Below are positions 4,084 to 37,488 of a stretch of DNA of 64,000 nucleotides, piece after piece. Each line of letters begins with the position of its first letter. The first letter of the stretch is position 1. Origin of the DNA: Candidatus Bathyarchaeota archaeon. Lineage in GTDB: Archaea > Thermoproteota > Bathyarchaeia > Bathyarchaeales > Bathycorpusculaceae. A program made the translations under genes and the position numbers. Under the pieces are notes generated by a model. It was not told the DNA's origin. It ran no database searches and worked only from the letters and a program-made list of their open reading frames with translations. Where the stretch lies: assembly GCA_963782525.1 (NCBI GenBank), contig CAWAKC010000010.1, positions 160,001-224,000 of the forward strand. The letters run 5' to 3'.

Positions 4084-4796
4084 TCAATTAGGTGATGTAT
4101 TAGCCGTTACGCTTTGTTTCTTTTTGTTCTCGGCTGCTGCCCTGATATCGTTTATTCTTTGTTCAATTGTTGGGTAGAGTTTGGGTAGGACCCGTTCTAT
4201 GCGTGTATTTCTTTGGGGCCGCAGGTTGTTTAGCTTGATCATAGCTGTTATCATTGGTTCGCCGTTTAGGTATTTTACTGAGCTGAGGTCGCATTCTGTC
4301 TCTTGGTTTCGGAGCCATTTTGCGTTAGCGAATAAAGCGGCAACTAAACCAAAAAAACCGAAGAATAAGGTTGCAAGCAAACTGGACACGACTTTTCCTA
4401 AACTGCCGACAAGTGGCATGGCATTTATTGCTGTAAAGTTGAAAAACACAATGAAACCCATCAGAACTCCAATTGTCGCTGAAGGAACGGTTAATCGAAA
4501 GAACTTTTTTGTTCCATGTCTTTTTTTTAGGTGCGTTAACTCATGCGCTGCAACAGCTAGCACCTCATCAGGTAATAGCGTATTGAAATAGTTGGTATCA
4601 AAGAAGATTCTGTCTAAGAAAGCCATACCGCTACCCGCAACCTCGCCTTGTAATACCGATCTAACTTGGTTTTTTTCAAAACTCTGGATACATGCATTGT
4701 CTCTGCTATGTTGTCAAGGGATTCAGATGGAAAAGGACTTGCTTTTAGTAACCGCGCAAGAAATGAATTGATGATTCCCATGGTGTTTCTCTTCAC
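4084..4796 (-). pseudogene. M48/HtpX-like Zn metalloprotease, frameshifted near 4620
   Basis: AVAAHELTH (HExxH), two TM helices, QETECD, YPTIEQRI; N-terminus lies in another frame (4614-4796). Confidence 0.7.
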
Positions 4797-5018
4797 TTTA
4801 TTGACTATTATGGCTTCTTTTACATACTTGCGATTTTCATGATTATTTCTCGGTAGGCCTTGTCGTTGAAGTCTCTTTCACAAGCTACCAGAACAAGTCT
4901 GCTCTCCGTTCCCTTACACTGATAAATCGTAAAGTATTTGTCATCTTTGATTTCTTCCCCACATAAACCGCACTTCTTCAATTCTACCCCTCAATGCTCT
5001 TTTCTTTGCTAAAGGAAT

Positions 5019-5858
5019 TTAAGACTTTGTTGCTTCTGAGAGTAGGTTTCTCTCTTTGAAGAACTCTAAGGCTTCTTTCTTGTCTTTATGTTCAAAATCT
5101 TCGTAGAGAATCTCTATGAGGTCTTCGAGGGCAATCCATCTTATTGCTAAAACATTATCTCTAATAGTTGAGAGGGTTCTCCACTCAATGTCTTCCCGTA
5201 TCTTCTCTGGGTTGGTATATTCGCTGATTTTGTAGTAGTAGAGTCTGCTTTTCTTTTCGAAGAATCCGCGAGGAGTTGATAGAATAACTAGAACTTCTTT
5301 TCCATTATGTTCGTTGACTTCTAATCCGACATCTATGAGTCTTGCCAGCTGGTTTCTGGAAGGGTTAAATGCGGTATCATATACGATGTCTGAGGTGAAC
5401 TTGATTTCAAAGAAGATTAGCAACTTATCAGTTTCAATGAATGCGTCGACATGAGTGTTTGACTCCAACGGTTGATTTAACCTATGTGCGTTGGCTTTGT
5501 CTCTGATGTATTTTACAGGATGATTTTTCACTTCATCTTTTATCCATTTGAGGTATCCTTTTGGTGATTTGTATTGCTTTTCCAATGCGATATCTACGAC
5601 GTTTTCTTCGTATGCGCTTACTTTTGCTAAGGATAGGATTCTGTTGACTAAACCTACTCTGTTCAAGCTTAACACTAAGGGCGCAAAGGTGTAGAAGGTT
5701 ATGAGTTCTTCTGCTTTGTCGTATTGGTTTGGGTAAGCCGCCAAGTTTGTAGCTGTTCTTGCCGAGTTTGAGTTATCAACCCATGTATTTAGTTTATTTA
5801 AGCGGTCGTTTGATGGATCGAAACAAGTCTGGATGGCTTCTTTAAAGAGTAATCGCAT
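5019..5858 (-). CDS. PD-(D/E)XK restriction-endonuclease-like protein
   Basis: THVDAFIET...FFEIKF motif followed by RNQLAR. Confidence 0.6.
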   Translation of the reverse strand: MRLLFKEAIQTCFDPSNDRLNKLNTWVDNSNSARTATNLAAYPNQYDKAEELITFYTFAPLVLSLNRVGLVNRILSLAKVSAYEENVVDIALEKQYKSPKGYLKWIKDEVKNHPVKYIRDKANAHRLNQPLESNTHVDAFIETDKLLIFFEIKFTSDIVYDTAFNPSRNQLARLIDVGLEVNEHNGKEVLVILSTPRGFFEKKSRLYYYKISEYTNPEKIREDIEWRTLSTIRDNVLAIRWIALEDLIEILYEDFEHKDKKEALEFFKERNLLSEATKS

Positions 5859-6295
5859 AGAAACCTATTAGTGGATACTAGTATTTCTTTTTTAGCAGAA
5901 CCCCAGAAGCCTAAACTAACAAACAACCAAAACAACTGTAAGAAGAAGTGCAAATAAAATCAGACTGCACTGCTAACCTTGTCTTTATATGAGGGTGTCA
6001 AAGCAATGACTTTGCTTATGTGCTGGTTAGACGATATCGAAGATTCGGCATTGCAAAATAGAGTTAGTCCACAGGTAGTCTCGGCATTAACACGCTCAGT
6101 TGCTGTAAGCAGTATTTCGCCCATCAACTCCTTAGTGTCAAGAGCTTGTTTTGTTTCGTTAGCGTTGCGTTTACTTAACTTCTAGCGCCTCTACCACCAC
6201 TGAAGGTTGATAAAAATTCTTTGTTTTTCTATTACTTTAGTCTCATTTCAAAAAAAGGGATAGTTGGTTTAAAAGCCAACATTGTAGTGGTTTGT

Positions 6296-6841
6296 TTAGC
6301 TGGTTGCGAAAAGTGAATCGGGGAGAGTGGGGTTCGGGCAGATATCATAGATTAGGATAGTTCCGGTACTTGAGGTGTACGTATAGGTCAAGTCACTGCC
6401 ATTCCAGTTGTCGGCTAGGTGAGTTACGTAGTCGTTGAATGGTGTAACCACCATTGAATAATCAGTAGGCCAATCATCCAAAGTCCATGTTGCACCATTA
6501 TCAAAACTGCTGTAGGCTTTTTGGGCACCTGTATCGACAATGTAGGTGTAGTTACCGGCTGAACCGCCCGGGATGTCCATCCTTACGACAAGAGTTGAAG
6601 TATTAAGGTTTTTAGCTGAAAACATGTAAGTTACTGTTCCCGCACTACCAGTTTCGTTAACATTGATCTGTAGAGTACTTGCGCCCACGACTGTTGGAAC
6701 AGAAGTTGGGGCAGGTGTAGGCGTAGCGTTTGTTCCGCCGCCTCCATTATTATTCATTAATATGTATGCAGCAGCGCCAGCAATGATAATAACAACGACT
6801 AAAACCGCTACAATAATGTATATTGTCTTTTTGTTCATCAA
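6296..6841 (-). CDS. Membrane-anchored extracellular hypothetical protein
   Basis: N-terminal TM/signal, Gly/Thr/Pro linker, beta-rich domain. Confidence 0.7.
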   Translation of the reverse strand: MMNKKTIYIIVAVLVVVIIIAGAAAYILMNNNGGGGTNATPTPAPTSVPTVVGASTLQINVNETGSAGTVTYMFSAKNLNTSTLVVRMDIPGGSAGNYTYIVDTGAQKAYSSFDNGATWTLDDWPTDYSMVVTPFNDYVTHLADNWNGSDLTYTYTSSTGTILIYDICPNPTLPDSLFATS

Positions 6842-7118
6842 AAATCACCGAGTTTTCCTAGTTTCAGGTTAATTGGAAATCCATATAAACTTTTCCCATG
6901 AGCCCTAAGAAGCCAGGACAACCTGCACAGATTAATTACTGCTCGATTGAGCTTTTGCTGATTTCGCCTCTTTTTCTAAAAGATGCAACAGTTGATGTAC
7001 AAAATTCGTTTGTATCAGTAGCAGCAACTTCTCTATCTCCCCCAGTGGATTCCGCTTCTTTTGTCATTGGGCAAATTATTAATGCAACTTGCCCGTTAAC
7101 TGGCATTCAGGATAAGCC

Positions 7119-8918
7119 ATGACTGCTAAGCTTACGTTCTACGGTGGAGTCAACGAAATCGGCGGTAACAAGATCCTCCTCCAAACCGAGGATGGTTCGG
7201 TTCTTCTGGATTTTGGCCGTAGAATGGGTGAGTACGGCAAGTTCTTTTCCGAGTTCCTTGTGGGCTCGTTTCAAGAATGCTCTGCGGGATATGCTTCGGC
7301 TGGGGATTTTGCCTAAAATCGACGGCATCTATACGCCATACTTGGTTGATATGACACTTCTGTTTGAGAACGAAGCCGTCAGCGAAAAAGTTCCATTGAC
7401 TGAGGCATTGGATTACTGGAAAACCACCGATGTCTGCCCTTGCAACCCTGGGCATCCAGCAGTGGACGGCGTTTTTGTTTCGCATGCTCATTTTGACCAC
7501 ATTCAAGACGTTAGCTTCCTCGATCCATGCATCCCCGTTTACTGCACCGAAAAAACCAAGGTTCTTGCAAAAGCGATGACGGATGTTTCGGTCTCAGGCG
7601 TGGATGATCAATACTTCAAAATCGCCAAGAAAGTAACCATCAAACAAAAAGCTCCCTTGTTTAAAACCCTCTGTCCAGGAGAATGCGCATGTAGTGAAGA
7701 AAAAGAAGAGGCGCACCCAATTATTGAAGATCCCAAAACTAAATTTAAATTCACTTACGACATAGCGCCTCAGTACCGAACCTTTAACACGGCTTCTGAG
7801 GGGCAGATCAGGGGCATTAAGTACAAGCTGATTCCAGTCGGGCACTCTGTCCCAGGTGCGTGTTCAGTTTTGCTTACTCTTCCAGATAGCAAACGCATCC
7901 TCTATACTGGGATGTGAGGTTTCATGGCGCTGGCGAAGTGTCAATTGATGAATATGTCGGCTCGATTGGTGGTCCGGTTGATGTTTTGATTACAGAAGGA
8001 ACCCGGATCGGAACGGATGAAGTAATAACCGAAGAAGCTGTTGGAAGAGACATAAGCGCTGACATTGGGTGCTCTGAAGGGTTAGTTCTCATTAACTTTG
8101 GTTGGAAGGATCTTTCACGCTTCAACACCATCCACCAAGCAGCAAAAGAAAACGGCCGCACACTCATAATCAATGCCAAACTTGCGTACCTTCTCTATGA
8201 AATGCACAACAATTTCCCATCCGAGTACCCAGATCCACGAACAATACCTAACCTCAAGGTCTACTTGAAACGGGAAGGCGATCTCCTCTACTCAAAAGCA
8301 GACTACGACAAATACAAAATGGGCTACCTACACTACCACGGAAGAAACATCGCCCAAGACGATAGAAACATCATACGCGTGGCAGAAAGACTAGGCGTAG
8401 GCGGCAACCCAAACAACCCCAAAAACCCATTGCCTTCCACAAGCGATGGAGAACCATACGATTACCAAGATCTCTACTCTCTATCGATGCATCATTTAGA
8501 TAACGGCGTTAAAGCCTTCCAAATTAGACAAAGCCCCACAGAATACGTTTTGATGTTTTCGTATTGGGACGCAAACGAACTCTTCGACATAATCCAACTC
8601 GACAGCAACCATAAGACCCGGTATATTTCTGCGTCAACTGAACCCTTCAGCGAAGAAATGGAGATAGACGAAGCTAAAATGGTGAATTGGCTGGACTTTT
8701 TCCATGTTAACTATGACTACGAAATGAAAAAGGACCAAAAAAATTTCGTGCGAAGACACGTTTCCGGGCATGCTTCCAAACCAGAACTCACAGAACTAAT
8801 ACAGAGAATTAATGCAGCAAAAATAATTCCCATACACACCGAACATTGTGAGATCTTTGAAGCATTGTTTGGAGGAAAAATTGTTTTACCTAAATATGGG
8901 CAACCCGTCGAGGTATAA
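7119..8918 (+). pseudogene. MBL-fold beta-CASP (RNase J-like) exonuclease split by two frameshifts
   Basis: LTFYGGVNEIGGNKILL...LLDFG (frame 1); SHAHFDH and VGHSVPGA...YTG (frame 2); ITEGT, HVSGHAS and IPIHTEH (frame 3). Both shifts fall in G runs, so they may be sequencing errors. Confidence 0.8.
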
Positions 8919-9008
8919 TTCTTTACCGCATTTTCTGCAGACTTAACTGGCAATTTAGGGTAAATAAACCATATTTTTTTTTATCATCCATACCGCATTA
9001 GCTATTCA

Positions 9009-9040
9009 GTGAATATTGGTGAATTATGGTGAATATTCAC
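9009..9040. promoter_or_regulatory. Operator-like array upstream of the GNAT TA locus
   Basis: GTGAAT(A/T)(T/A)T at 9009, 9019 and 9029 (10-bp period); palindrome GTGAATATTCAC at 9029-9040. Confidence 0.45.
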
Positions 9041-9059
9041 TAATATTGAACATAGTTTG

Positions 9060-9208
9060 ATGGTGAGTAATGTTCTTCCAAAACCAATACCTGCGTTAAA
9101 TGCAGAGCAGTGGGCTACATGGAGAAAGAAATGAAGCGGAAGTCATCAAAAAAAGATGCGGAGCGTCTCAAGCGAGTAAAGAAAACTTTTAAGAATTGTC
9201 CGTTATAA
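9060..9208 (+). pseudogene. Small putative antitoxin upstream of the GNAT gene, with one frameshift
   Basis: Manual translation: MVSNVLPKPIPALNAEQWA / MEKEMKRKSSKKDAERLKRVKKTFKNCPL*. Ends 12 nt before the GNAT start. Confidence 0.45.
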
Positions 9209-9220
9209 TACAACGTCTAT

Positions 9221-9750
9221 ATGAGCGCTAACAGGATAACTGCTAAAGACTTGTCTCCGCCAAAGATTTTGGACCAAATTGACGACGTTAGTAGCTTTAG
9301 TTGCGGCGTTAAAGACATGGATGAGTTTATACAAAAGGAAGCGTTGGATTTTCAGAAAGAACGCCTCGGTGTAACCTACCTTTTCATGCATGACCAGGAA
9401 TTAGTTGGGTTTGCTGCATTATCAATGGCAGACTTGAAAAGGGAAAAAATGGAAGCAAAGCATAGACCTCAATCTAAAGTTGAGAATTACCCTGCGCTCT
9501 TGATTGGACAGCTATCTGCGAAGAACTTCAAGGTCAAGACGTAGGCACATTCATTTGCGATTTTTGCTTGGACCGAGCTTTAAGGTTCTCGAAGATAATT
9601 GGATGCAGGTTCATGTTTGTAAATGCCCTAAAATCTGCGCTGGGATTTTACTTAAGATATTGTTTTGTGTTGCTTCCAAAGCAGGAAGGAAGAGACCAGA
9701 AAGTTATGTTCTTAGACATATCCAAAGCGACCGAACCACTAACAAATTAG
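9221..9750 (+). pseudogene. GNAT acetyltransferase, TacT/AtaT toxin-like, frameshifted
   Basis: FSCGVKDMDEFI, YPALLIGQL, then QGQDVG and GCRFMFVNA...GFY in a second frame. Confidence 0.75.
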
Positions 9751-27438: not shown

Positions 27439-27906
27439 ATGGCAGAACCAAAAGATGGTCGACCTATTTTCTTCCCTAAAAAATTAGTTTTGCTCGGCAA
27501 TCTCGCCCTTTTTGTGTGGATTGTTCTTGACGCAGTCGCCTTTCTACTATTTGATTTAACGGTTGGCATTGTGTTTCTTTTGGCGACGCTGATCTTAATT
27601 TATGGTTTACTGCACATTCTCGGTTGTCTGCGACCATGCTACAACTGCATAAAATGCACTCACGGCATGGGACGCCTGGCTGCATTGTACTTTGGCAAAC
27701 GCATCTTCAAAGACTACAAATACAGCTACAAACTGCCCACAGCAATATTCTTCACTCTATATATTGGGGCGTTTCCAGCAGCATTCGCACTCTACTCAGC
27801 AGTCATAGATTTCACAGTCGTCAAAGTAGCGATTTTTGTGGTTCTTTTGGTGTTTACAATCTATAGCGCCTTAACCTGGCAAACCAAAAAACGCTCGAGC
27901 CCATAG
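27439..27906 (+). CDS. Four-TM membrane protein with Cys cluster
   Basis: Hydrophobic helices flanking CLRPCYNCIKC. Confidence 0.7.
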   Translation: MAEPKDGRPIFFPKKLVLLGNLALFVWIVLDAVAFLLFDLTVGIVFLLATLILIYGLLHILGCLRPCYNCIKCTHGMGRLAALYFGKRIFKDYKYSYKLPTAIFFTLYIGAFPAAFALYSAVIDFTVVKVAIFVVLLVFTIYSALTWQTKKRSSP

Positions 27907-27958: not shown

Positions 27959-28414
27959 CTATGCTAATTTTGCTCCGCAATTAATGCATTTGGAAGCGTC
28001 GGGTTGATTTTTGGTTCCGCAGTATGAGCAGATTATCATAGCTGGAGTTGTTTCTTTAATTAACGCTTGGGTTTGAGCTTTGTAGATGTTGTCTCTTATT
28101 GTTCTGTAGGCTTTTTCTGCGTCATCTTTAGGTACATCGATTAGTATTAGCTGTGGTGCTGCGGATTTGAAGGTGCATCTGATTGTTGAACGCAGTATTC
28201 CCTTGTCTATGATTACATTTTCAAAATCTAAGTAGTTGTAGTCAGTGAAGTCTTTTTTTAATCCGAGTGCGTGAGGATGGCGCAAGATTACTCTCTGGTT
28301 GGTTATAACGACCGAGTCAATGTCAATCGCGAGATGGTAAAACTTTTGTTTAATGTAGAGTTCAATGGTCTCGTTAGGATCAAGTATATCTTTCATATCA
28401 TCAGGAGTCGCCAT
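27959..28414 (-). CDS. Bacterial-PH-domain protein with C-terminal Zn ribbon
   Basis: VVITNQRVIL PH motif; CSYCG...CINCG. Confidence 0.8.
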   Translation of the reverse strand: MATPDDMKDILDPNETIELYIKQKFYHLAIDIDSVVITNQRVILRHPHALGLKKDFTDYNYLDFENVIIDKGILRSTIRCTFKSAAPQLILIDVPKDDAEKAYRTIRDNIYKAQTQALIKETTPAMIICSYCGTKNQPDASKCINCGAKLA

Positions 28415-28633: not shown

Positions 28634-30058
28634 ATGCGCAAATTGAATACAAAACAACCCAATGAACCAAATCCACTTGCATCTAAAAACCAGACAACTG
28701 AGCAATTAAACCACCAAGAACTAGCCCAATCAATACTTTCACCGTTTATCCACCTATTCAACATTAATGAAACGACGAAGTGCCTTTTCAACTCTTTAAC
28801 TCTAAAAAAAGTATACTTAACCAATGATATGTACGCTAAGCTTTTAACAGATCTAAGTTTGGGAAACCGCAGTAAAGACGTTGAAAGTTTAATCGATCTG
28901 AAATTTATAGTGCCTCGAGGTTTTGATGAGATAAAAGTGTTTGACAGCATTGCAAACAGCGTGCTCAGAAAAAAACCTTCAACCAACCTTGCATACATTT
29001 TGGTAACGGACTTTTGCAACTTCAGATGCGGTTACTGCTTCATTGAAAACTCTCTAAAAGGGCCAAGCATTTCAATGTCTAAGGATTTGGCAGATAAAGT
29101 CATAAACGTTCTGATCAACGAAGCAAAACAAGTCCCAGAATACAGAGTCACATTTTATGGAGGAGAACCATTCAGCAACAGCGAAATCGTCTTCCACATC
29201 ATCGAAAAACTTGAGCAGGCAGCTAAAGACAAATTCAAATTTTCCTGCGTCACCAACGGAAGTCTAGTAACCGAAGATTTAGCTAAAAAACTCAAACAAC
29301 ACAACGTTACAGTAGGATTATCGCTTGACGGATGGGCCAACATCGACAAAAACCGTGTGTTTACCAATGGAAAAGAAACCTTTTACTCAGCACTTAAAGC
29401 GTTAACGCTCTTAAAAGAAGCCGAAGTAAATGTGGGAATATCATGCACAATCACAAAACAGAACTACCAATACGCAGAAGAAGTAGTTGAATTTATCCAA
29501 AAATTAGGAATCAGAACCATAGGGTTCAATTTGTTAACTAGACTCAAAGAGCCAAGCGAATATGAAGTTCCAGACCCAAAACAACTCGCCCACCACCTCT
29601 TTAACGCATACTTAAAAGCAAACGACTTGCACATGTTTGAAGATCGCATAGGGAATCGGCGAGCAAATTATTTTTTCAAAGAAATATTTCATTTGTACGA
29701 TTGCCCCGCGTTTGGTCAACTAATATTTTTTTCACCAGCTGGAACAGTTGGACCTTGCCACGCGTTCTATCCGTCAGGAAAATATCAAATTCCAATTAAA
29801 GATAATTTGAAAGTCCCAGAAGAACCATTGTTTTACAAATGGTTGGAACTTGGCACCCTAAAGAATAAAGACTGCATGAGGTGTCCTGCCATCGGAATTT
29901 GCGGAGGAGGATGCGCATACGATATATACGTTAAAACAGGTCAACTTGGCATCAAAGAAGACTATTTTTGCACCTTTCAAAATGAAATACTCAAGCTCCT
30001 TCTATCCTACAATTTCCTGATGACCCCTCAAAATAAGCGCAGAAAAACGAAAAGTTGA
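28634..30058 (+). CDS. Radical SAM/SPASM-domain peptide maturase with probable N-terminal RRE
   Basis: CNFRCGYC, FYGGEP, VTNG, SLDG; seven-Cys SPASM region DCPAF...GPCH...CMRCPAIGICGGGC...FC; N-terminal beta/helix extension. Confidence 0.9.
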   Translation: MRKLNTKQPNEPNPLASKNQTTEQLNHQELAQSILSPFIHLFNINETTKCLFNSLTLKKVYLTNDMYAKLLTDLSLGNRSKDVESLIDLKFIVPRGFDEIKVFDSIANSVLRKKPSTNLAYILVTDFCNFRCGYCFIENSLKGPSISMSKDLADKVINVLINEAKQVPEYRVTFYGGEPFSNSEIVFHIIEKLEQAAKDKFKFSCVTNGSLVTEDLAKKLKQHNVTVGLSLDGWANIDKNRVFTNGKETFYSALKALTLLKEAEVNVGISCTITKQNYQYAEEVVEFIQKLGIRTIGFNLLTRLKEPSEYEVPDPKQLAHHLFNAYLKANDLHMFEDRIGNRRANYFFKEIFHLYDCPAFGQLIFFSPAGTVGPCHAFYPSGKYQIPIKDNLKVPEEPLFYKWLELGTLKNKDCMRCPAIGICGGGCAYDIYVKTGQLGIKEDYFCTFQNEILKLLLSYNFLMTPQNKRRKTKS

Positions 30059-30206
30059 AAACTTTCATCTCCAAACAGCAAGAAACCCGCGACCAAGCTA
30101 AATCAAAAAAGCCCGGCAAACAATTGCCAATCTACCAATGTAATAAATGAAAAAGACATGCACACTTTTGACCTTAACTTTGCGCCAGATTAATTTTTAC
30201 AATAAA

Positions 30207-30214
30207 TATAAATA
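30207..30214 (+). promoter_or_regulatory. Putative TATA box for the precursor gene
   Basis: TATAAATA about 35-40 nt upstream of the TTG starts, with GTGAT SD-like motif at 30238. Confidence 0.45.
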
Positions 30215-30241
30215 TTGTTACTCACTACAACAATGTAGTGA

Positions 30242-30685
30242 TTGTTTTTGTCAAAAAATAAATCAAAAGCTAAAGCTCCCTCCAAAAAACCCACTTCTAC
30301 AATGCTTAATAAAAATCAAACCCGCGCGGCGCCAAAAAAAATGACCCCAGCCCAAACTAAACGGTTAAAAACAATTTTAGCAAAAATGCCACCTATCGAG
30401 AAAATAGATCCTGCAATGTATGCGAAGCTACAGTCAACGATTCATGATGTAGTAGTTAAAGCGTTGCCTGAATACCAGCAATGGGTGGGCGCAAACCTGG
30501 TAGCTGATGACTGTCCGACACCCTTGTGTAGCTCATGCGGCAACGATTGCCCAACTCCGTTATGTAGTTCATGTGGAAATGACTGTCCGACGCCAATTAA
30601 AGACATTGATGATCTTGTCAATTCGGCTGTCGAAAAGGCAATGACCGCGGCAATTCGTCAAGCTTTGGAAAAACAATTCAAATAA
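30242..30685 (+). CDS. Putative RiPP precursor with repeated Cys-rich core (DCPTPLCSSCGN x2.4)
   Basis: Lies between two radical SAM genes; Lys-rich N-terminus, helical leader, repeated core, helical follower. Start may be TTG 30248. Confidence 0.75.
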   Translation: MFLSKNKSKAKAPSKKPTSTMLNKNQTRAAPKKMTPAQTKRLKTILAKMPPIEKIDPAMYAKLQSTIHDVVVKALPEYQQWVGANLVADDCPTPLCSSCGNDCPTPLCSSCGNDCPTPIKDIDDLVNSAVEKAMTAAIRQALEKQFK

Positions 30686-30987: not shown

Positions 30988-32577
30988 ATGCGTGTAATTC
31001 TTTGTATCCCTCCAGTTTCTTCGTTAGTTCCTTATCCTGCAATTCCATACTTAACAAGTAGTCTGAAGGCAAATAATCAAAAGGTTAGTACTTTTGATCT
31101 GAACATTAAGGCTTTTAATTCAACTCTTTTTCGCATAGGCGTGGATATTAAGCCCGGAAAAATTTTACGTAACATTAATCCTGGCGTAAGCGCGAAATGG
31201 ACCAAAGTTCCTGAGGCAAATATTTACTCGACCATGCGAGAGAGCAAAGAAATTTTCGAAGAAATTATGTCAGAAGAGGCGGCTGATCAATTAGGTTGTC
31301 CCCATTCAAACTTAAAGTCCAGATATACCATAACCACAGAAGTAAAACAGCAAATAATTTCGGATGTTTGGAAAACTTGTAACAATTGGTTATCGGAGCT
31401 TGCCAGTGATACCAAAGAACAAAGTATTATAGGCTTCCATGTAATTAGTCAAACTGGATTGTTGTGGAGCATACTTCTTTCGCGAAAATTAAAGAAAATT
31501 CTTCCCAGGATTTTAACAGTCTTGGGAGGTCCGGCATTCCTCGCATGGGGCAAAGTTCTCTCTACCCATCCCGAAATTGACATAATAGTTCGAGGGGAAG
31601 GCGAGACAACAATCTCTGAAATAGCAAATTTCTATGACGGAAGCTTAGAATCAATAAAAGGAATCAACGGAATTTCATACCGAAACAGAGAAAATAAAAT
31701 TATTACCGTTGCGGACCGCCCATTAATAAAATCTCTTAATGCTTTGCCTTTTCCCAATTATGATGATTTGCCATTAAAAGAATACCCTCAGAACAAGTTC
31801 GAGATGCCTATAATTCCAGTTGTCGGCTCTAGAGGATGCATTGGAAACTGCGTTTTTTGTGTTGAAAAACGCTTATGGGGGAACACCTATCGGATGCGTA
31901 CACCTGAAAATATCTTATCCGAATTCAAAAATATTAAAGAAAAATGTGGGCCTTCTTTTATTCGCTTCAACGACAGTTTAATTAATTGTAATATAAAGTC
32001 GCTAGAAACATTCTGCAATTTATTGATTAAAGAGAATATCAGAATGCAGTGGATGGGTAATGCTCGAATCCGACCTGAGATGACCGATAAATTGCTTAAA
32101 AAAATGCACCAAGCAGGTTGTGTAGGATTATGGTATGGCATAGAATCTGGGTCTCAAAGAATATTGAATAAAATGAAAAAAGGGTATAATTTGGAAACGG
32201 CGAAACAAGTGATCCAAGATACTGCAAGAAACTCCATTCGCGTTCTAATATTCATGATAGTGGATTTTCCGGGAGAAACACCACACGATTTTAAACAATC
32301 AGTTGACTTCTTACAGCAGAATCAAGTTAACATTGATCAAGTCAGCATTTCACGTTTCGGGATCTTGCATGATTCAGAAATATCTCTCAACCCACAAAAA
32401 TATGGACTTAAAGTTACTGAGAAAAAAGTGGGCGTAAATTACAATTATACATATTCACCTAGACCCATAAGCAATCGATATGAAATCTTAGATTCTGCCT
32501 GGAAGCATTTGAGCATGCTAAAAACGGCGAACCACGTTAGAAGAAATCCTGTAAAAATAATCGTTCCTTATTTCTGA
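30988..32577 (+). CDS. Cobalamin (B12)-binding radical SAM protein (class B methyltransferase-like)
   Basis: N-terminal B12 domain (IPP...AIPYLTSSL, VLGGP, VRGEGE), GSRGCIGNCVFC, YGIESGSQRIL, FPGET. Confidence 0.9.
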   Translation: MRVILCIPPVSSLVPYPAIPYLTSSLKANNQKVSTFDLNIKAFNSTLFRIGVDIKPGKILRNINPGVSAKWTKVPEANIYSTMRESKEIFEEIMSEEAADQLGCPHSNLKSRYTITTEVKQQIISDVWKTCNNWLSELASDTKEQSIIGFHVISQTGLLWSILLSRKLKKILPRILTVLGGPAFLAWGKVLSTHPEIDIIVRGEGETTISEIANFYDGSLESIKGINGISYRNRENKIITVADRPLIKSLNALPFPNYDDLPLKEYPQNKFEMPIIPVVGSRGCIGNCVFCVEKRLWGNTYRMRTPENILSEFKNIKEKCGPSFIRFNDSLINCNIKSLETFCNLLIKENIRMQWMGNARIRPEMTDKLLKKMHQAGCVGLWYGIESGSQRILNKMKKGYNLETAKQVIQDTARNSIRVLIFMIVDFPGETPHDFKQSVDFLQQNQVNIDQVSISRFGILHDSEISLNPQKYGLKVTEKKVGVNYNYTYSPRPISNRYEILDSAWKHLSMLKTANHVRRNPVKIIVPYF

Positions 32578-32647
32578 ACAAGTTTATCGCCAGAGATGCC
32601 TTCTGGCTATGTCTTTAGTTTAGTTCACTAAACCCATAAATATTGTT

Positions 32648-33856
32648 TTGAGAGATCTTAAAGTAGAGCAGCGATTATTTTTGCCAAAAAACAAATCAGC
32701 AACTAAACCCCTCTCTAAAAAACCTGCAAAAACTGGTTCTAAGACAAAAACAAATGCAGCTGTTTCAAAGAAAAGACAAACCAAGAAGCAAAATGAAACC
32801 CCACAAACACCTTTAGACAAAAATCAACCCTTTGCAAAATTGAACCCAGAAATATATGCGAAGCTTCAATCAACAATAGATGAACTCGTTATAGAAACCG
32901 TACCCAAGTACAATGAATGGTTAAATTCTGCATTTAGCGAAAAAATTATAGTAGAGGATTCTTCCAAGGACGACCCTGCCTCCATCAAAGTAGGCGGGTC
33001 TGGTGCGAAAATTGATCAGATGGTAGTTACTGCTTTCACTAAAGTTATTAATGAGGCAATTAAGAAAGCTTTGGAAAAAAATGATCATTCGGGAATTATG
33101 GAAAAATGGTTCAAAAAGAAATTTTGTGATGACCTTTCTGACATTCGTCCTGAAAGCAGGAATTATTACAAGTATTGTGTAAATAATTTCGTTACAAATT
33201 TTTTTTCTAAAGACCGAATATCGGGAAAGAAGATTCTCGACTTTGGATGTGGCCCAGGATACTATTCCGCGATTTTGGCCCAACGTGGATCATACGTAAT
33301 TGGAATTGACAGAAGTGCGTTTCTAATTCACAAAGCAAACGAACTCAAACAAAAACTAGGACTTAAAAATGTAGATTTCATTCAAGGAGATTTTCTTGAT
33401 TTTGCGGCAAATGTGATGCCTAAGGAGTTTGACTACATCATTGCAGTAGACACGATTGTGAGTTTTGACTATTCAAGACAAAAACATAACCATGAGGAAT
33501 TTTCCCAAGCATTGAGCAGAATCAACAGAATTCTGAAAGATCGTGGCAGATTCTTTATTATTGAAGCGCATCCTTTTTTTGGTCAACTTGCTAAAGGAAT
33601 AAAATTCTCAAGCGAAGGACATTTTCACGGTCGTTTACCCAATTATAAAATAGAATATAAAGGTAAAAATAATCCTCACCATTGGTTTACTCTTAACGAA
33701 ATAACCAGTGCTCTTAGTGAGAACTGCTTAGCAATTTGTAGGATTTATGAGCCCGATCCAAGCGTTGAATTAAAAAAAGAAAACGCCCAATTATTCAAAT
33801 TTTTCCTAAAGTATCCCCACATGATTGTATACGAAATATGCAAAGTAAGATCCTGA
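32648..33856 (+). CDS. Class I SAM-dependent methyltransferase fused to a precursor-homologous N-terminal domain
   Basis: KILDFGCGPG, GIDRS, FIQGD, LKDRGRF; N-terminus shares YAKLQSTI and ID..V..A..K....AI..ALEK with 30242-30685. Probable start TTG 32681. Confidence 0.85.
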   Translation: MRDLKVEQRLFLPKNKSATKPLSKKPAKTGSKTKTNAAVSKKRQTKKQNETPQTPLDKNQPFAKLNPEIYAKLQSTIDELVIETVPKYNEWLNSAFSEKIIVEDSSKDDPASIKVGGSGAKIDQMVVTAFTKVINEAIKKALEKNDHSGIMEKWFKKKFCDDLSDIRPESRNYYKYCVNNFVTNFFSKDRISGKKILDFGCGPGYYSAILAQRGSYVIGIDRSAFLIHKANELKQKLGLKNVDFIQGDFLDFAANVMPKEFDYIIAVDTIVSFDYSRQKHNHEEFSQALSRINRILKDRGRFFIIEAHPFFGQLAKGIKFSSEGHFHGRLPNYKIEYKGKNNPHHWFTLNEITSALSENCLAICRIYEPDPSVELKKENAQLFKFFLKYPHMIVYEICKVRS

Positions 33857-34046: not shown

Positions 34047-35210
34047 TTGAAGAGGTGGACTGGGAGCAACATTTTTTTCCAGCTGCTCGTTTTATATATG
34101 CGATTGAGTATGTCGGTTTTCCTTTTTGACCAAGAAACGATAGGTATGATTCGCTACATTCTGGCACTTCGACGTTTTAAGGAGTATTCAGTTGGACCTC
34201 AAGGCTTAGATGAGTATCTTTGTGCCGTATCTTTCAATAGGGTGCTAATCCAGACGGGGCTAAAATTTTCCAAGTTTCAGAAAGATAATCCGGGAGATAT
34301 CCGAGTGTATGAGGTTATCCGTTTCTTAGAGCAGAAAAGCCACATAAATCCTCCAACGGCGCAGAAACTGAGAGAATACGTGGATTTTTATGACTCCCTG
34401 ATGAATACCAATTGTCAAACAGCTCCAATAAAGGCTAATTCTAAAGCTCAGGAAATCTTGCGGTTTCTCTGTATTGAAGCGGGCTTGGACCAAGATGAGG
34501 AACTCAAAAATAGGACATTCGAGGACATAGCAACTCTTGCAACAAGGCAATCTGCTGCAAACCAGAATTACGAGAAGCTTGTTGAATCTGATTTTGACAA
34601 TTTTGATAAACTCTACGAGAAGTGTCCGTCTTTGAAGCTGGAAATAGAAAAAAGATTAACGACCTCATTGCGGGGTGCACAAATATCGGGTTTCACTCCT
34701 AATACTGGTGGGATATGGCTGCCTTTTGTTACGCTTGAAACAAATGATAGTAGAGCACATATTGATAGGGCAAGTGTTGGAGTAATCTTTACGCCTCTTG
34801 ATGTTAGGATAGGATTGAATTTTGGTAGTCAGGCTCACAAGTTTAGGATGAGATATTATGGAATGCTTTTGAATGGGGAATTGATGAATGAGTTGGAGTT
34901 TCTTAACCGCAGAGATACGGGATACTGTTTCTGTGACACTTTTTGGAATTATCATATAAGGAATTTGCAGTCTCTTCAATGGTGTCTTACTCTTTATGGC
35001 AGTACTAAGATTAGTATTGAAAACGCTATTGAAGAGACTAGACAGCTTGAGGGAACTTTTTTGACGGCAAACAAGTACTTAATTAGTAAAGTGATTAGGA
35101 GAAGTCGGGAAGATTTTGCTTATGTTTTAAACGGACTTGTTGATGAGATTTCTAAGACTTTAAATGAACTTTATCCAACAATAGAGCGTATTAACAAAGC
35201 TCAAGCCTGA
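34047..35210 (+). CDS. Hypothetical protein
   Basis: 387-aa ORF with no motif recognised; true start is probably downstream. Confidence 0.65.
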   Translation: MKRWTGSNIFFQLLVLYMRLSMSVFLFDQETIGMIRYILALRRFKEYSVGPQGLDEYLCAVSFNRVLIQTGLKFSKFQKDNPGDIRVYEVIRFLEQKSHINPPTAQKLREYVDFYDSLMNTNCQTAPIKANSKAQEILRFLCIEAGLDQDEELKNRTFEDIATLATRQSAANQNYEKLVESDFDNFDKLYEKCPSLKLEIEKRLTTSLRGAQISGFTPNTGGIWLPFVTLETNDSRAHIDRASVGVIFTPLDVRIGLNFGSQAHKFRMRYYGMLLNGELMNELEFLNRRDTGYCFCDTFWNYHIRNLQSLQWCLTLYGSTKISIENAIEETRQLEGTFLTANKYLISKVIRRSREDFAYVLNGLVDEISKTLNELYPTIERINKAQA

Positions 35211-37188: not shown

Positions 37189-37488
37189 CTATGGTTTGGT
37201 AAGCACGATTTCTATTGTTGAAACCATTCGTGATCTACTTTCGCCTTCTCTTGGCGGCATCTCTTCCGTTGCTATCTGGATTTTGCTAACTTTCAGGTCC
37301 TTTATGAAGCGATTTCTCGTTATTTCAGCGGCGTCAACTGCTGTAGTTATTGCCTGTCCTCTAGCTTTCAAAGTTATTTCTTTAGCGTTGCTTGCAGACA
37401 GACCTGTAATTATCGCTAGAACATAATCCATGGGCATTTTATTTCCGACGAAAACAATTCCCGATCTTTCAACCATTTCATTCACCAT
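37189..37488 (-). CDS. albA: DNA/RNA-binding protein Alba
   Basis: VFVGNK.PMDYVLA, ITLKARGQAITTAVDAAEI, VSTIEIVL. Confidence 0.95.
   Translation of the reverse strand: MVNEMVERSGIVFVGNKMPMDYVLAIITGLSASNAKEITLKARGQAITTAVDAAEITRNRFIKDLKVSKIQIATEEMPPREGESRSRMVSTIEIVLTKP

Follow-up and report, generated by a model that had tools for sequence, protein, structure and literature searches.

The stretch of DNA analyzed here (the window) comprises 64,000 nucleotides of a Candidatus Bathyarchaeota genome (contig CAWAKC010000010.1, positions 160,001 to 224,000 of the forward strand). On its plus strand, at 28.6 to 33.9 kb, it carries a four-gene cluster that encodes a SPASM-type radical S-adenosylmethionine (SAM) enzyme, a Cys-rich precursor peptide, a B12-binding radical-SAM enzyme, and a methyltransferase (MT) bearing an additional N-terminal region. 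Sequence comparison indicates that this region, residues 1 to 135 of the MT, is a domesticated paralogue of the cluster's own precursor. The finding is a real one, it is conserved, and it concerns an unusual architecture; the cluster is best filed with those for ribosomally synthesized and posttranslationally modified peptides (RiPPs) in which enzyme-precursor fusions or leader recognition occur. We propose, as a somewhat doubtful possibility, that a RiPP tailoring enzyme might here find its substrate via a domesticated, core-less copy of that substrate, the helices of the two pairing homotypically. Such “substrate-paralogue docking” would be independent of the RiPP recognition element (RRE) and would operate in an undescribed archaeal family of peptides that have a central core of Cys-triad repeats and are products of SPASM and B12 radical-SAM enzymes. 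The four genes are as follows.

28634 to 30058, plus strand: radical SAM/SPASM peptide maturase of 474 amino acids (Pfam PF04055 and PF13353), with an N-terminal extension of about 120 amino acids ahead of the radical-SAM core
30248 to 30685, plus strand: precursor of 145 amino acids counted from TTG 30248 (open from 30242, 147 amino acids), belonging to no Pfam or NCBIfam family
30988 to 32577, plus strand: B12-binding radical-SAM enzyme of 529 amino acids, a putative C-methyltransferase (Pfam PF04055, and PF02310 below its cut-off)
32648 to 33856, plus strand: open reading frame (ORF) of the fused MT, with 402 amino acids, or 391 when counted from TTG 32681

A first-pass annotation, made from the sequence alone, had claimed that about the first 135 residues of the MT align end to end with the precursor. 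This claim is borne out by BLASTP, which aligns residues 1 to 144 of the precursor with residues 10 to 144 of the MT ORF (69.3 bits, E = 4e-19, 52 of 152 positions identical, or 34%). Likewise, a six-frame search of the genome with the precursor recovers the MT N-terminus (E = 1.6e-14, 38% identity), together with one more paralogue on another contig. The three pairs of motifs quoted in that annotation are all present in the sequence, and the limits it drew are sound, as 32681 is a conserved TTG start codon and 33085 fits the end of the second helix.

The precursor can be divided into a basic tail, helix 0 (residues 34 to 46), a leader helix (residues 55 to 84), a Cys-repeat core, and a follower helix (residues 118 to 144). 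In the AlphaFold2 (AF2) model, which is of low confidence (mean predicted local distance difference test [pLDDT] score of 53.6), helices are placed at residues 34 to 46, 55 to 72, 74 to 84, and 118 to 144. Across the family, helix 0 displays the motif (T/S)xAQxKRLxxxLAxxPxIE, in which the R, L, and P are invariant, and the leader helix displays DPxxYAKLQSTIxDxVxKxLPEYQxW. The core packs 7 Cys into 28 residues, and its repeat unit has the family consensus C-P-x-x-[LIV]-C-S-[SA]-C-x-N-[DQ], present in two to four copies per precursor.

30512 to 30595, plus strand: Cys-repeat core, C91 to P118 of the 147-residue ORF, with 2.3 copies of the 12-residue unit CPTPLCSSCGND

The N-terminal domain of the MT (hereinafter the N-domain) retains the tail and the leader helix and, less strictly, the follower helix; helix 0 and the core have been lost. 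The residues that are invariant in the leader helix of the precursors (P, Y, L, Q, K, P-E-Y, and W) are also kept in the MT copy. The Cys core is without a counterpart in the MT, where VEDSSKDDPASIKVGGSGAK, a 19-residue Cys-free loop, stands at that place; with not a single Cys in the entire N-domain of the window's protein, the annotation was right that a Cys-free segment replaces the core. Among 26 homologues the loop varies from 5 to 19 residues and possesses one Cys in 9 and none in 17, the window's protein being one of the latter. In some homologues, vestiges of the core junctions (GNDC or DCPTPL) survive in the loop. The parts of the fused MT, with the ratio of nonsynonymous to synonymous substitutions (dN/dS) for the segments of the N-domain, are as follows.

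32681 to 32830, plus strand: N-domain, basic tail rich in Lys, Ser, and Thr, residues 1 to 50; predicted disordered (pLDDT 27 to 43); dN/dS 0.44
32831 to 32959, plus strand: N-domain, copy of the leader helix, residues 51 to 93, containing KLNPEIYAKLQSTIDELVIETVPKYNEWLNSAF; predicted helices at 56 to 81 and 84 to 93; dN/dS 0.18
32960 to 32998, plus strand: N-domain, loop in place of the Cys core, residues 94 to 106; dN/dS 0.60
32999 to 33085, plus strand: N-domain, copy of the follower helix, residues 107 to 135; predicted helix at 107 to 132; dN/dS 0.55
33086 to 33856, plus strand: class I SAM-dependent MT domain, residues 136 to 391 and the stop codon; Pfam matches above cut-off

The catalytic part is matched by PF13847 (80.4 bits, E = 1.3e-22, cut-off 27), PF13649 (54.9 bits, cut-off 27), and PF08241 (54.1 bits, cut-off 21.2) over about residues 192 to 308 of the 402-residue ORF, within a class I MT region of about residues 170 to 400. 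A glycine-rich SAM-binding motif is characteristic of class I SAM methyltransferases; in the motif DFGCGPGY of this family, D187, G189, C190, G191, P192, G193, and Y194 are invariant in 26 sequences. Foldseek searches with the AF2 model retrieved generic class I MTs only (3l8d, UbiG 4kdr, and ChlM 4qdk, with CypM 7wzg at rank 12) and were uninformative for the N-domain, for which an ESM Atlas search too returned no usable match.

The kinship of the two genes extends upstream of the coding sequence. The first-pass annotation had noted a similar start context; the resemblance goes further than it had noted, as both a 23-nucleotide motif and an upstream box are common to the precursor and the MT.

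30202 to 30209, plus strand: ATAAATAT box upstream of the precursor; other loci have related boxes at an equal distance
30240 to 30262, plus strand: 23-nucleotide start-context motif GATTGTTTTTGTCAAAAAATAAA at the precursor, containing TTG 30248, which is conserved in related precursors
32636 to 32643, plus strand: ATAAATAT box upstream of the MT gene; a box stands at about -45 to -37 in 16 of 16 intact MT genes
32673 to 32695, plus strand: 23-nucleotide start-context motif GATTATTTTTGCCAAAAAACAAA at the MT, containing TTG 32681, which is conserved in relatives

The start motif, GATTRTTTTTGYCAAAAAAYAAA, has exactly three copies in the 2.87-Mb genome, namely, at the precursor, at the MT, and at a second, orphan precursor described below, and the reversed control pattern has none. 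The box, which lies about 38 to 46 nucleotides 5′ of both starts, is a possible archaeal TATA element. As the box and the start motif are common to both genes, the duplication that created the N-domain carried a promoter-like region and start context along with it. The start of the MT is TTG 32681: TTG occupies this codon in 15 of 15 intact MT genes of the related loci, which have an in-frame stop a few codons 5′ of it, and several independent gene calls begin with M there. Similarly, 24 of the 26 precursor-type ORFs listed have the conserved TTG with an in-frame stop upstream; of the remaining two, one has the TTG by eye and the other is 5′-truncated by a frame break. The database gene call for the window's MT begins at an internal ATG (P0033, 278 amino acids), and hence the fusion is easily overlooked. 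Around the TTG the start motif is almost a palindrome (TTTTTG-YC-AAAAAA), and its synonymous positions are conserved as well; an operator, or an RNA hairpin that covers the start codon, is conceivable. Directly 5′ of the start motif of the precursor, at 30222 to 30241, lies an 8-bp hairpin, TCACTACAACAATGTAGTGA, which was matched in the terminator scan and is partly conserved in other loci. Scans of the window with bacterial promoter and terminator models, which are not meaningful for an archaeon, found no enrichment (14 promoter-like sites against 16.4 expected and 5 terminator-like sites against 4.5). The sequencing runs listed for this DNA comprised four DNA runs of one study (best share 0.35) and no RNA run.

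The fusion is not confined to the window. A genome scan that took one genome per species kept 79 loci, 22 of which (L031 to L052) encode a fused MT; all 22 are from Candidatus Bathyarchaeota metagenome-assembled genomes, and the 57 others match the MT core only, mostly at 24 to 42% identity. Mapping by tblastn places the N-domain directly against the MT domain in 22 of 22 related loci, with the SPASM gene and then the Cys-core precursor upstream in 22 of 22 and the B12 enzyme in 20 of 22 (L041 and L049 being those without it). A word-based search of metagenome proteins with residues 1 to 150 alone, against targets of 221 to 704 amino acids, gave 12 proteins of 367 to 402 amino acids with N-domains 44 to 63% identical to that of the window, and all 12 possess MT Pfam domains. 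When the MT domain alone was the query, 92 proteins were recovered, of which 55 are at least 71% identical and 43 of these have at least 338 amino acids. Four of the twelve shorter ones were inspected and either begin inside the N-domain or represent the downstream half of frame-broken genes; several of the other eight are on contigs of about 1 to 2 kb. Among 1.84 billion representative proteins, a profile built from 26 precursors matched 20 at E ≤ 0.001. The only match longer than 200 amino acids that includes the leader-helix region is an MT (P0026, 367 amino acids); a 1,410-residue match (E = 3e-4) covers positions 79 to 124 of the profile only.

Beyond these, no fused MT was found in 100 other genomes of the same taxonomic family, which have MTs of about 250 amino acids and about 26 to 32% identity without a nearby SPASM gene or precursor, and a single precursor locus (in genome G077). 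A class-level search with a sister-clade MT found matches in 3 of 400 other genomes, all of the fused form and all in the window's genus (3 of 40 sampled). The family of precursors and fused MTs is hence a narrow one, belonging to a small group of soil archaea.

A tree built for the leader-helix region groups the 25 distinct MT copies in one clade (support 98/96) and the precursors inside the clusters in another (100/99); it is drawn from a 51-column alignment, and many of its forks are open. Median pairwise dN/dS was computed for 16 genes, with 72 to 119 pairs per segment, and is 0.18 in helix 1 (119 pairs, dS of about 0.42), 0.13 in the MT domain, 0.44 in the tail, 0.55 in helix 2, and 0.60 in the loop. 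The leader helix is thus under purifying selection about as strong as that on the catalytic domain. Taking these observations together, the fusion arose once, by duplication of a promoter-plus-precursor unit upstream of an MT gene and in-frame fusion, and is retained in every known member of this MT clade. Because it recurs across 22 of 22 loci and in 12 metagenome proteins, because its copies group in one clade, and because helix 1 is under selection, we conclude on comparative grounds that the fusion is not an assembly accident; the possibility raised at the outset, that it is unique to this assembly, is thereby ruled out.

The nearest relatives of the MT domain outside this clade, at 48 to 64% identity, have 251 to 328 amino acids and either no N-terminal extension or a different one of about 45 residues. 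The genomic context of this sister clade is provided by one locus, L121, among 80 kept in a scan of metagenome contigs. This high-GC contig encodes, all on the plus strand, a precursor of 194 amino acids (4760 to 5344), a SPASM enzyme (5412 to 7004), and an unfused MT (7001 to 7894) that is 81% identical to the sister-clade query P0078, itself 59% identical to the window's MT domain. The L121 precursor is very rich in Cys, with CxC runs followed by CAPPVDCA repeats, and the N-terminal extension of the L121 MT is unrelated to it (E = 39). Going by this single context, SPASM-modified Cys-repeat peptides appear to be what the MTs of this family tailor in general, and the precursor-like domain appears to be a derived feature of the archaeal clade. 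Further, that sister-clade MTs in similar clusters have no N-terminal extension or a different one suggests that the N-terminus of this family might be an exchangeable adaptor.

What the N-domain does must be judged from these data and from structure prediction. The precursor of the cluster is probably the substrate of the MT, and the reading that we tentatively prefer is that the N-domain might mimic the substrate and serve as a docking module, with the helices of the precursor itself as its partners. Under this proposal, its two helices would fold into the hairpin that the real precursor also forms and would pair homotypically with the leader and follower helices of the latter. The Cys-repeat loop would thereby be held beside the MT active site, either while the SPASM radical-SAM enzyme makes the cross-links or once it has made them. 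In this way no RRE would be needed for the MT to recognize its substrate. Predicted as a complex, residues 45 to 140 of the MT and residues 28 to 145 of the precursor score 0.40 (0.40, 0.35, and 0.41 in individual runs) against 0.02 for the best control; the runs share at least 70% of their contacts, and the pLDDT of the partner is at least 57. In calibration, the mark used was reached by 58 of 80 solved complexes and by 2 of 110 mismatched pairs, with scores at or under 0.60 in 7 of those 80 solved complexes and in both of the mismatched pairs that passed. The first-pass annotation had inferred that the leader and follower helices dock the enzyme onto the precursor; the part that stands is the core-less leader/follower copy fused to the MT, and docking itself is on less firm ground, with its complex score obtained from folds of low confidence.

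Several points weigh against such a docking role. A complex score of this class is more often wrong than right unless the pairing was likely beforehand, and the two chains, being paralogues, possibly favor a symmetric-looking model. AF2 confidence is low for both (pLDDT below 50 in the N-domain and a mean of 53.6 in the precursor). The hydrophobic moments of the helices, compared with those of shuffled sequences, are unimpressive: z is about 1.1 to 1.2 for helix 1a in both proteins and 0.2 for the follower helix of the precursor, with only helix 2 of the MT reaching 2.8. The values for helix 1b (-0.8 and -0.5) and for helix 0 of the precursor (0.1) are likewise not significant. Helix 2 and the loop are weakly constrained (dN/dS of 0.55 and 0.60), and the conservation of helix 1 is compatible equally well with binding to the radical-SAM enzymes or to the MT domain itself. 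Finally, 7 of the 22 loci have an interrupted MT reading frame; the break falls within the loop in three of them (L043, L046, and L049) and outside it in the other four (L047, L048, L050, and L052). Because the SPASM and B12 genes in those assemblies are broken too, the breaks are probably assembly errors; a real split form of the MT may nevertheless lie behind them. The loop breaks fall at about 8245 to 8333 in L043, 8272 to 8399 in L046, and 8312 to 8410 in L049, the three loci closest to the window's MT, and L043 and L046 have, in the shifted frame, an ATG (reading MIVP) from which an MT of 299 amino acids or similar, without helix 1, could start.

The ambiguity of helix 1 bears directly on two other explanations, each of which we hold to be unlikely. 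In the first, which the first-pass annotation had raised in the form of a decoy, the N-domain imitates the leader so as to recruit the radical-SAM enzymes: helix 1 would be recognized by the SPASM enzyme, the B12 enzyme, or both, and the tethered MT would receive the cross-linked product directly. Helix 1 is indeed the best-conserved part of both the precursors and the N-domain, the MT has no RRE of its own, and MT and SPASM genes co-occur in 22 of 22 loci; moreover, the N-terminal extension of about 120 residues in the SPASM enzyme can be aligned with N-terminal segments of RiPP maturase models and of chain 8vpo. However, the tethered mimic and the true substrate would be rivals for one binding site, and helix 0, which could just as well be the part that the enzymes bind, is missing from the MT copy.

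In the second, also unlikely in our estimate, the N-domain acts in cis by folding onto its own MT domain, either as a built-in activator, which would let the MT work on a substrate with its own leader already bound or cleaved off, or as a pseudosubstrate that holds the MT inactive until the real precursor displaces it. There is precedent in engineered fusions of a leader to its modifying enzyme: in leader-LctM (LctCE) and leader-HalM2 (HalCE2), the attached leader switches the enzyme on and renders it constitutively active, according to the available part of the source (PMC5141572). In both these fusions and the present MT a leader is covalently attached to a modifying enzyme. The former, so far as that text describes them, are man-made and their leader replaces that of the substrate, whereas the latter is natural and ancient and includes a follower helix, and its substrate retains a leader of its own. 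That helix 1 is as constrained as the catalytic domain and that core-junction vestiges sit at the place expected for a substrate loop would also fit a role in cis. Against it, the loop that would face the active site is the least conserved segment (dN/dS of 0.60, 5 to 19 residues) and is Cys-free in the window; no leader-removing protease was found in the four-gene cluster; and the AF2 model shows no confident packing of the N-domain against the MT domain.

Still less probable, in our view, is that the N-domain is a relic or an expression device, the 5′ part of the precursor having been co-opted for its promoter and start context only, so as to coregulate expression, with the peptide having no binding role. 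The box and the 23-nucleotide motif, common to the precursor, the MT, and the orphan precursor and conserved even at synonymous sites, are what such a device would need, and the tail, loop, and helix 2 are indeed weakly constrained. Nonetheless, this fits poorly with a dN/dS of 0.18 for helix 1 over 119 gene pairs and with the about 135 codons that stay open in 15 of 22 loci and in 43 metagenome proteins, when the first few codons would suffice.

In borosins, the precursor part lies C-terminal to the MT domain. The first-pass annotation had raised a borosin-like self-substrate, in which the N-terminal segment of the MT would be methylated by the enzyme itself and later set free as the product; despite a precursor-derived segment and an MT sharing one polypeptide, as in type I to III borosins such as OphMA (available text of PMC11285071), and the one loop Cys kept by 9 of 26 homologues, we consider this very improbable because the core is missing and the loop differs in length and sequence among homologues (17 of 26, including the window's, are Cys-free), and against it also stand the separate core-bearing precursor in 22 of 22 loci and the class I Rossmann MT with its precursor-like part at the N-terminus.

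The docking proposal can be set against the known modes by which RiPP enzymes engage their substrates. With borosins, the cluster has in common a RiPP methyltransferase and a precursor-derived sequence in one polypeptide; their fused part, as far as the source just cited goes, holds the core, which is the substrate of a self-modifying enzyme, whereas here it is N-terminal and core-less, a separate core-bearing precursor is always encoded nearby, and the MT is a generic class I enzyme. The RRE, a PqqD-like domain, has a winged-helix fold with a three-stranded sheet. Like the RRE, the N-domain is presumed to bring a tailoring enzyme to the leader of a precursor, but its homology is with the substrate and not with a binding domain, and the MT matches no PqqD/RRE model in Pfam or NCBIfam at E ≤ 0.01. 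By DSSP the AF2 model of residues 1 to 135 is all-helical, at a pLDDT below 50. The annotation's suggestion of a recognition mode distinct from that of RREs is plausible in this light, the missing PqqD match speaking for it directly and the helical fold with the reserve due to low-confidence models. Folded Nif11 and proteusin leaders offer a further parallel, in that their tertiary structure can mediate protein-protein recognition, as reported in the accessible portions of two sources (bioRxiv 10.64898/2026.10.04.756588 and PMC10858898). As in these Nif11-like and NHLP/proteusin precursors, so far as those portions describe them, the leader regions here are long, helical, and probably folded, and would act through protein contacts. 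Unlike them, the present precursor lies outside the Pfam and NCBIfam families (no match in either at E ≤ 0.01, Nif11 and NHLP leader models included), and its core is central, with the follower helix behind it. In the literature covered, as far as its available text extends, no enzyme was found to carry a copy of a Nif11 or NHLP leader.

A literature search, which took in few subscription journals and no supplements, found neither a tailoring enzyme with a precursor-derived domain nor a natural counterpart of the engineered fusions; it likewise found no report of RiPP chemistry or of this cluster in Bathyarchaeota. In RiPP biosynthesis, it is an open problem how tailoring enzymes that have no RRE locate their peptide substrates, and pathway engineering is limited by it. 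If the docking proposal is true, like binding like would represent a new and simple recognition logic, with a module that might be transplanted to other enzymes, and the MT would be nature's equivalent of the engineered leader-enzyme fusions. A built-in comparator is available in the sister-clade MTs, which occur unfused in similar clusters. Independently of this, the cluster documents peptide modification genes in Candidatus Bathyarchaeota.

Precursor genes related to that of the cluster occur in other settings. The second paralogue in the window's genome is an orphan precursor of 196 amino acids (L005, 10036 to 10626, minus strand, equivalent to about 83035 to 83625 of contig 3 of genome G000), which has 3.5 CPVEICSSCGND units, an additional Lys-rich C-terminal tail, and the same 23-nucleotide start motif. 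No modifying enzymes are encoded near it, and the genome has only one SPASM orthologue of its type; therefore, one enzyme set presumably serves both the cluster precursor and the orphan. The orphan belongs to a second precursor type with the motif EKTMPEYKKWLNSAFGE, to which the N-domain of the MT is, by eye, closest. Another member of this type, of 174 amino acids, adjoins a SPASM orthologue of 75% identity in a different genus (contig 10 of G077, L026). The genes there, all on the minus strand, lie at 5339 to 5863, 6004 to 7503, 7695 to 9083, and 9160 to 9510 and include a second SPASM-type radical-SAM enzyme and a 116-residue ORF; the contig has neither an MT nor a B12 enzyme.

Between the B12 enzyme and the MT, 8 of the 22 loci (L035, L037, L038, L040, L044, L047, L048, and L052, at about 7900 to 8400) have an additional precursor gene of 133 amino acids. 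In the five that were read (L037, L040, L044, L047, and L048), its upstream sequence is of the MT type, which suggests that unequal recombination or tandem duplication may have occurred repeatedly among the precursor genes and the MT N-domain. The tblastn matches of about 1.6 kb in these eight loci had the appearance of an MT fused to a full core; this was rejected, as they represent the separate 133-residue precursor gene followed by the fused MT.

In the arrangement of a Cys-rich precursor beside a SPASM maturase, 190 nucleotides 3′ of it in the window and kept in 22 of 22 loci, the cluster recalls ranthipeptide and SCIFF clusters (e.g., those of PapB and CteB). The closest solved chain to the maturase is 5wgg (E = 4.8e-24), and its best NCBIfam models are the FibroRumin maturase TIGR04136 (179 bits, cut-off 400) and the PapB ranthipeptide maturase (150 bits, cut-off 340); the SCIFF maturase model TIGR03974 gives 102 bits against a cut-off of 425, and the protein reaches no equivalog cut-off in NCBIfam. 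Besides these subthreshold scores, the cluster differs from the ranthipeptide and SCIFF systems in its central core, its archaeal origin, the addition of a B12 radical-SAM enzyme and a fused MT, and the absence of a protease or transporter, neither of which was found by the family scan of the four-gene cluster or in the 22 related loci. The B12 radical-SAM enzyme also scores below the cut-offs of its NCBIfam models, ApyD (144 bits, cut-off 750) and TIGR03975 (140 bits, cut-off 282).

Two flanking ORFs, of 387 amino acids (34047 to 35210, plus strand) and 155 amino acids (27439 to 27906, plus strand), match no Pfam or NCBIfam family and stand beside the cluster in none of the 22 related loci; therefore, they are probably not members of it. 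On the minus strand, a bPH/zinc-ribbon gene at 27959 to 28414 recurs in only one of these loci (L039), and an Alba DNA/RNA-binding protein, which marks this genome as that of an archaeon, is encoded at 37189 to 37488 (100.3 bits, family cut-off 90).

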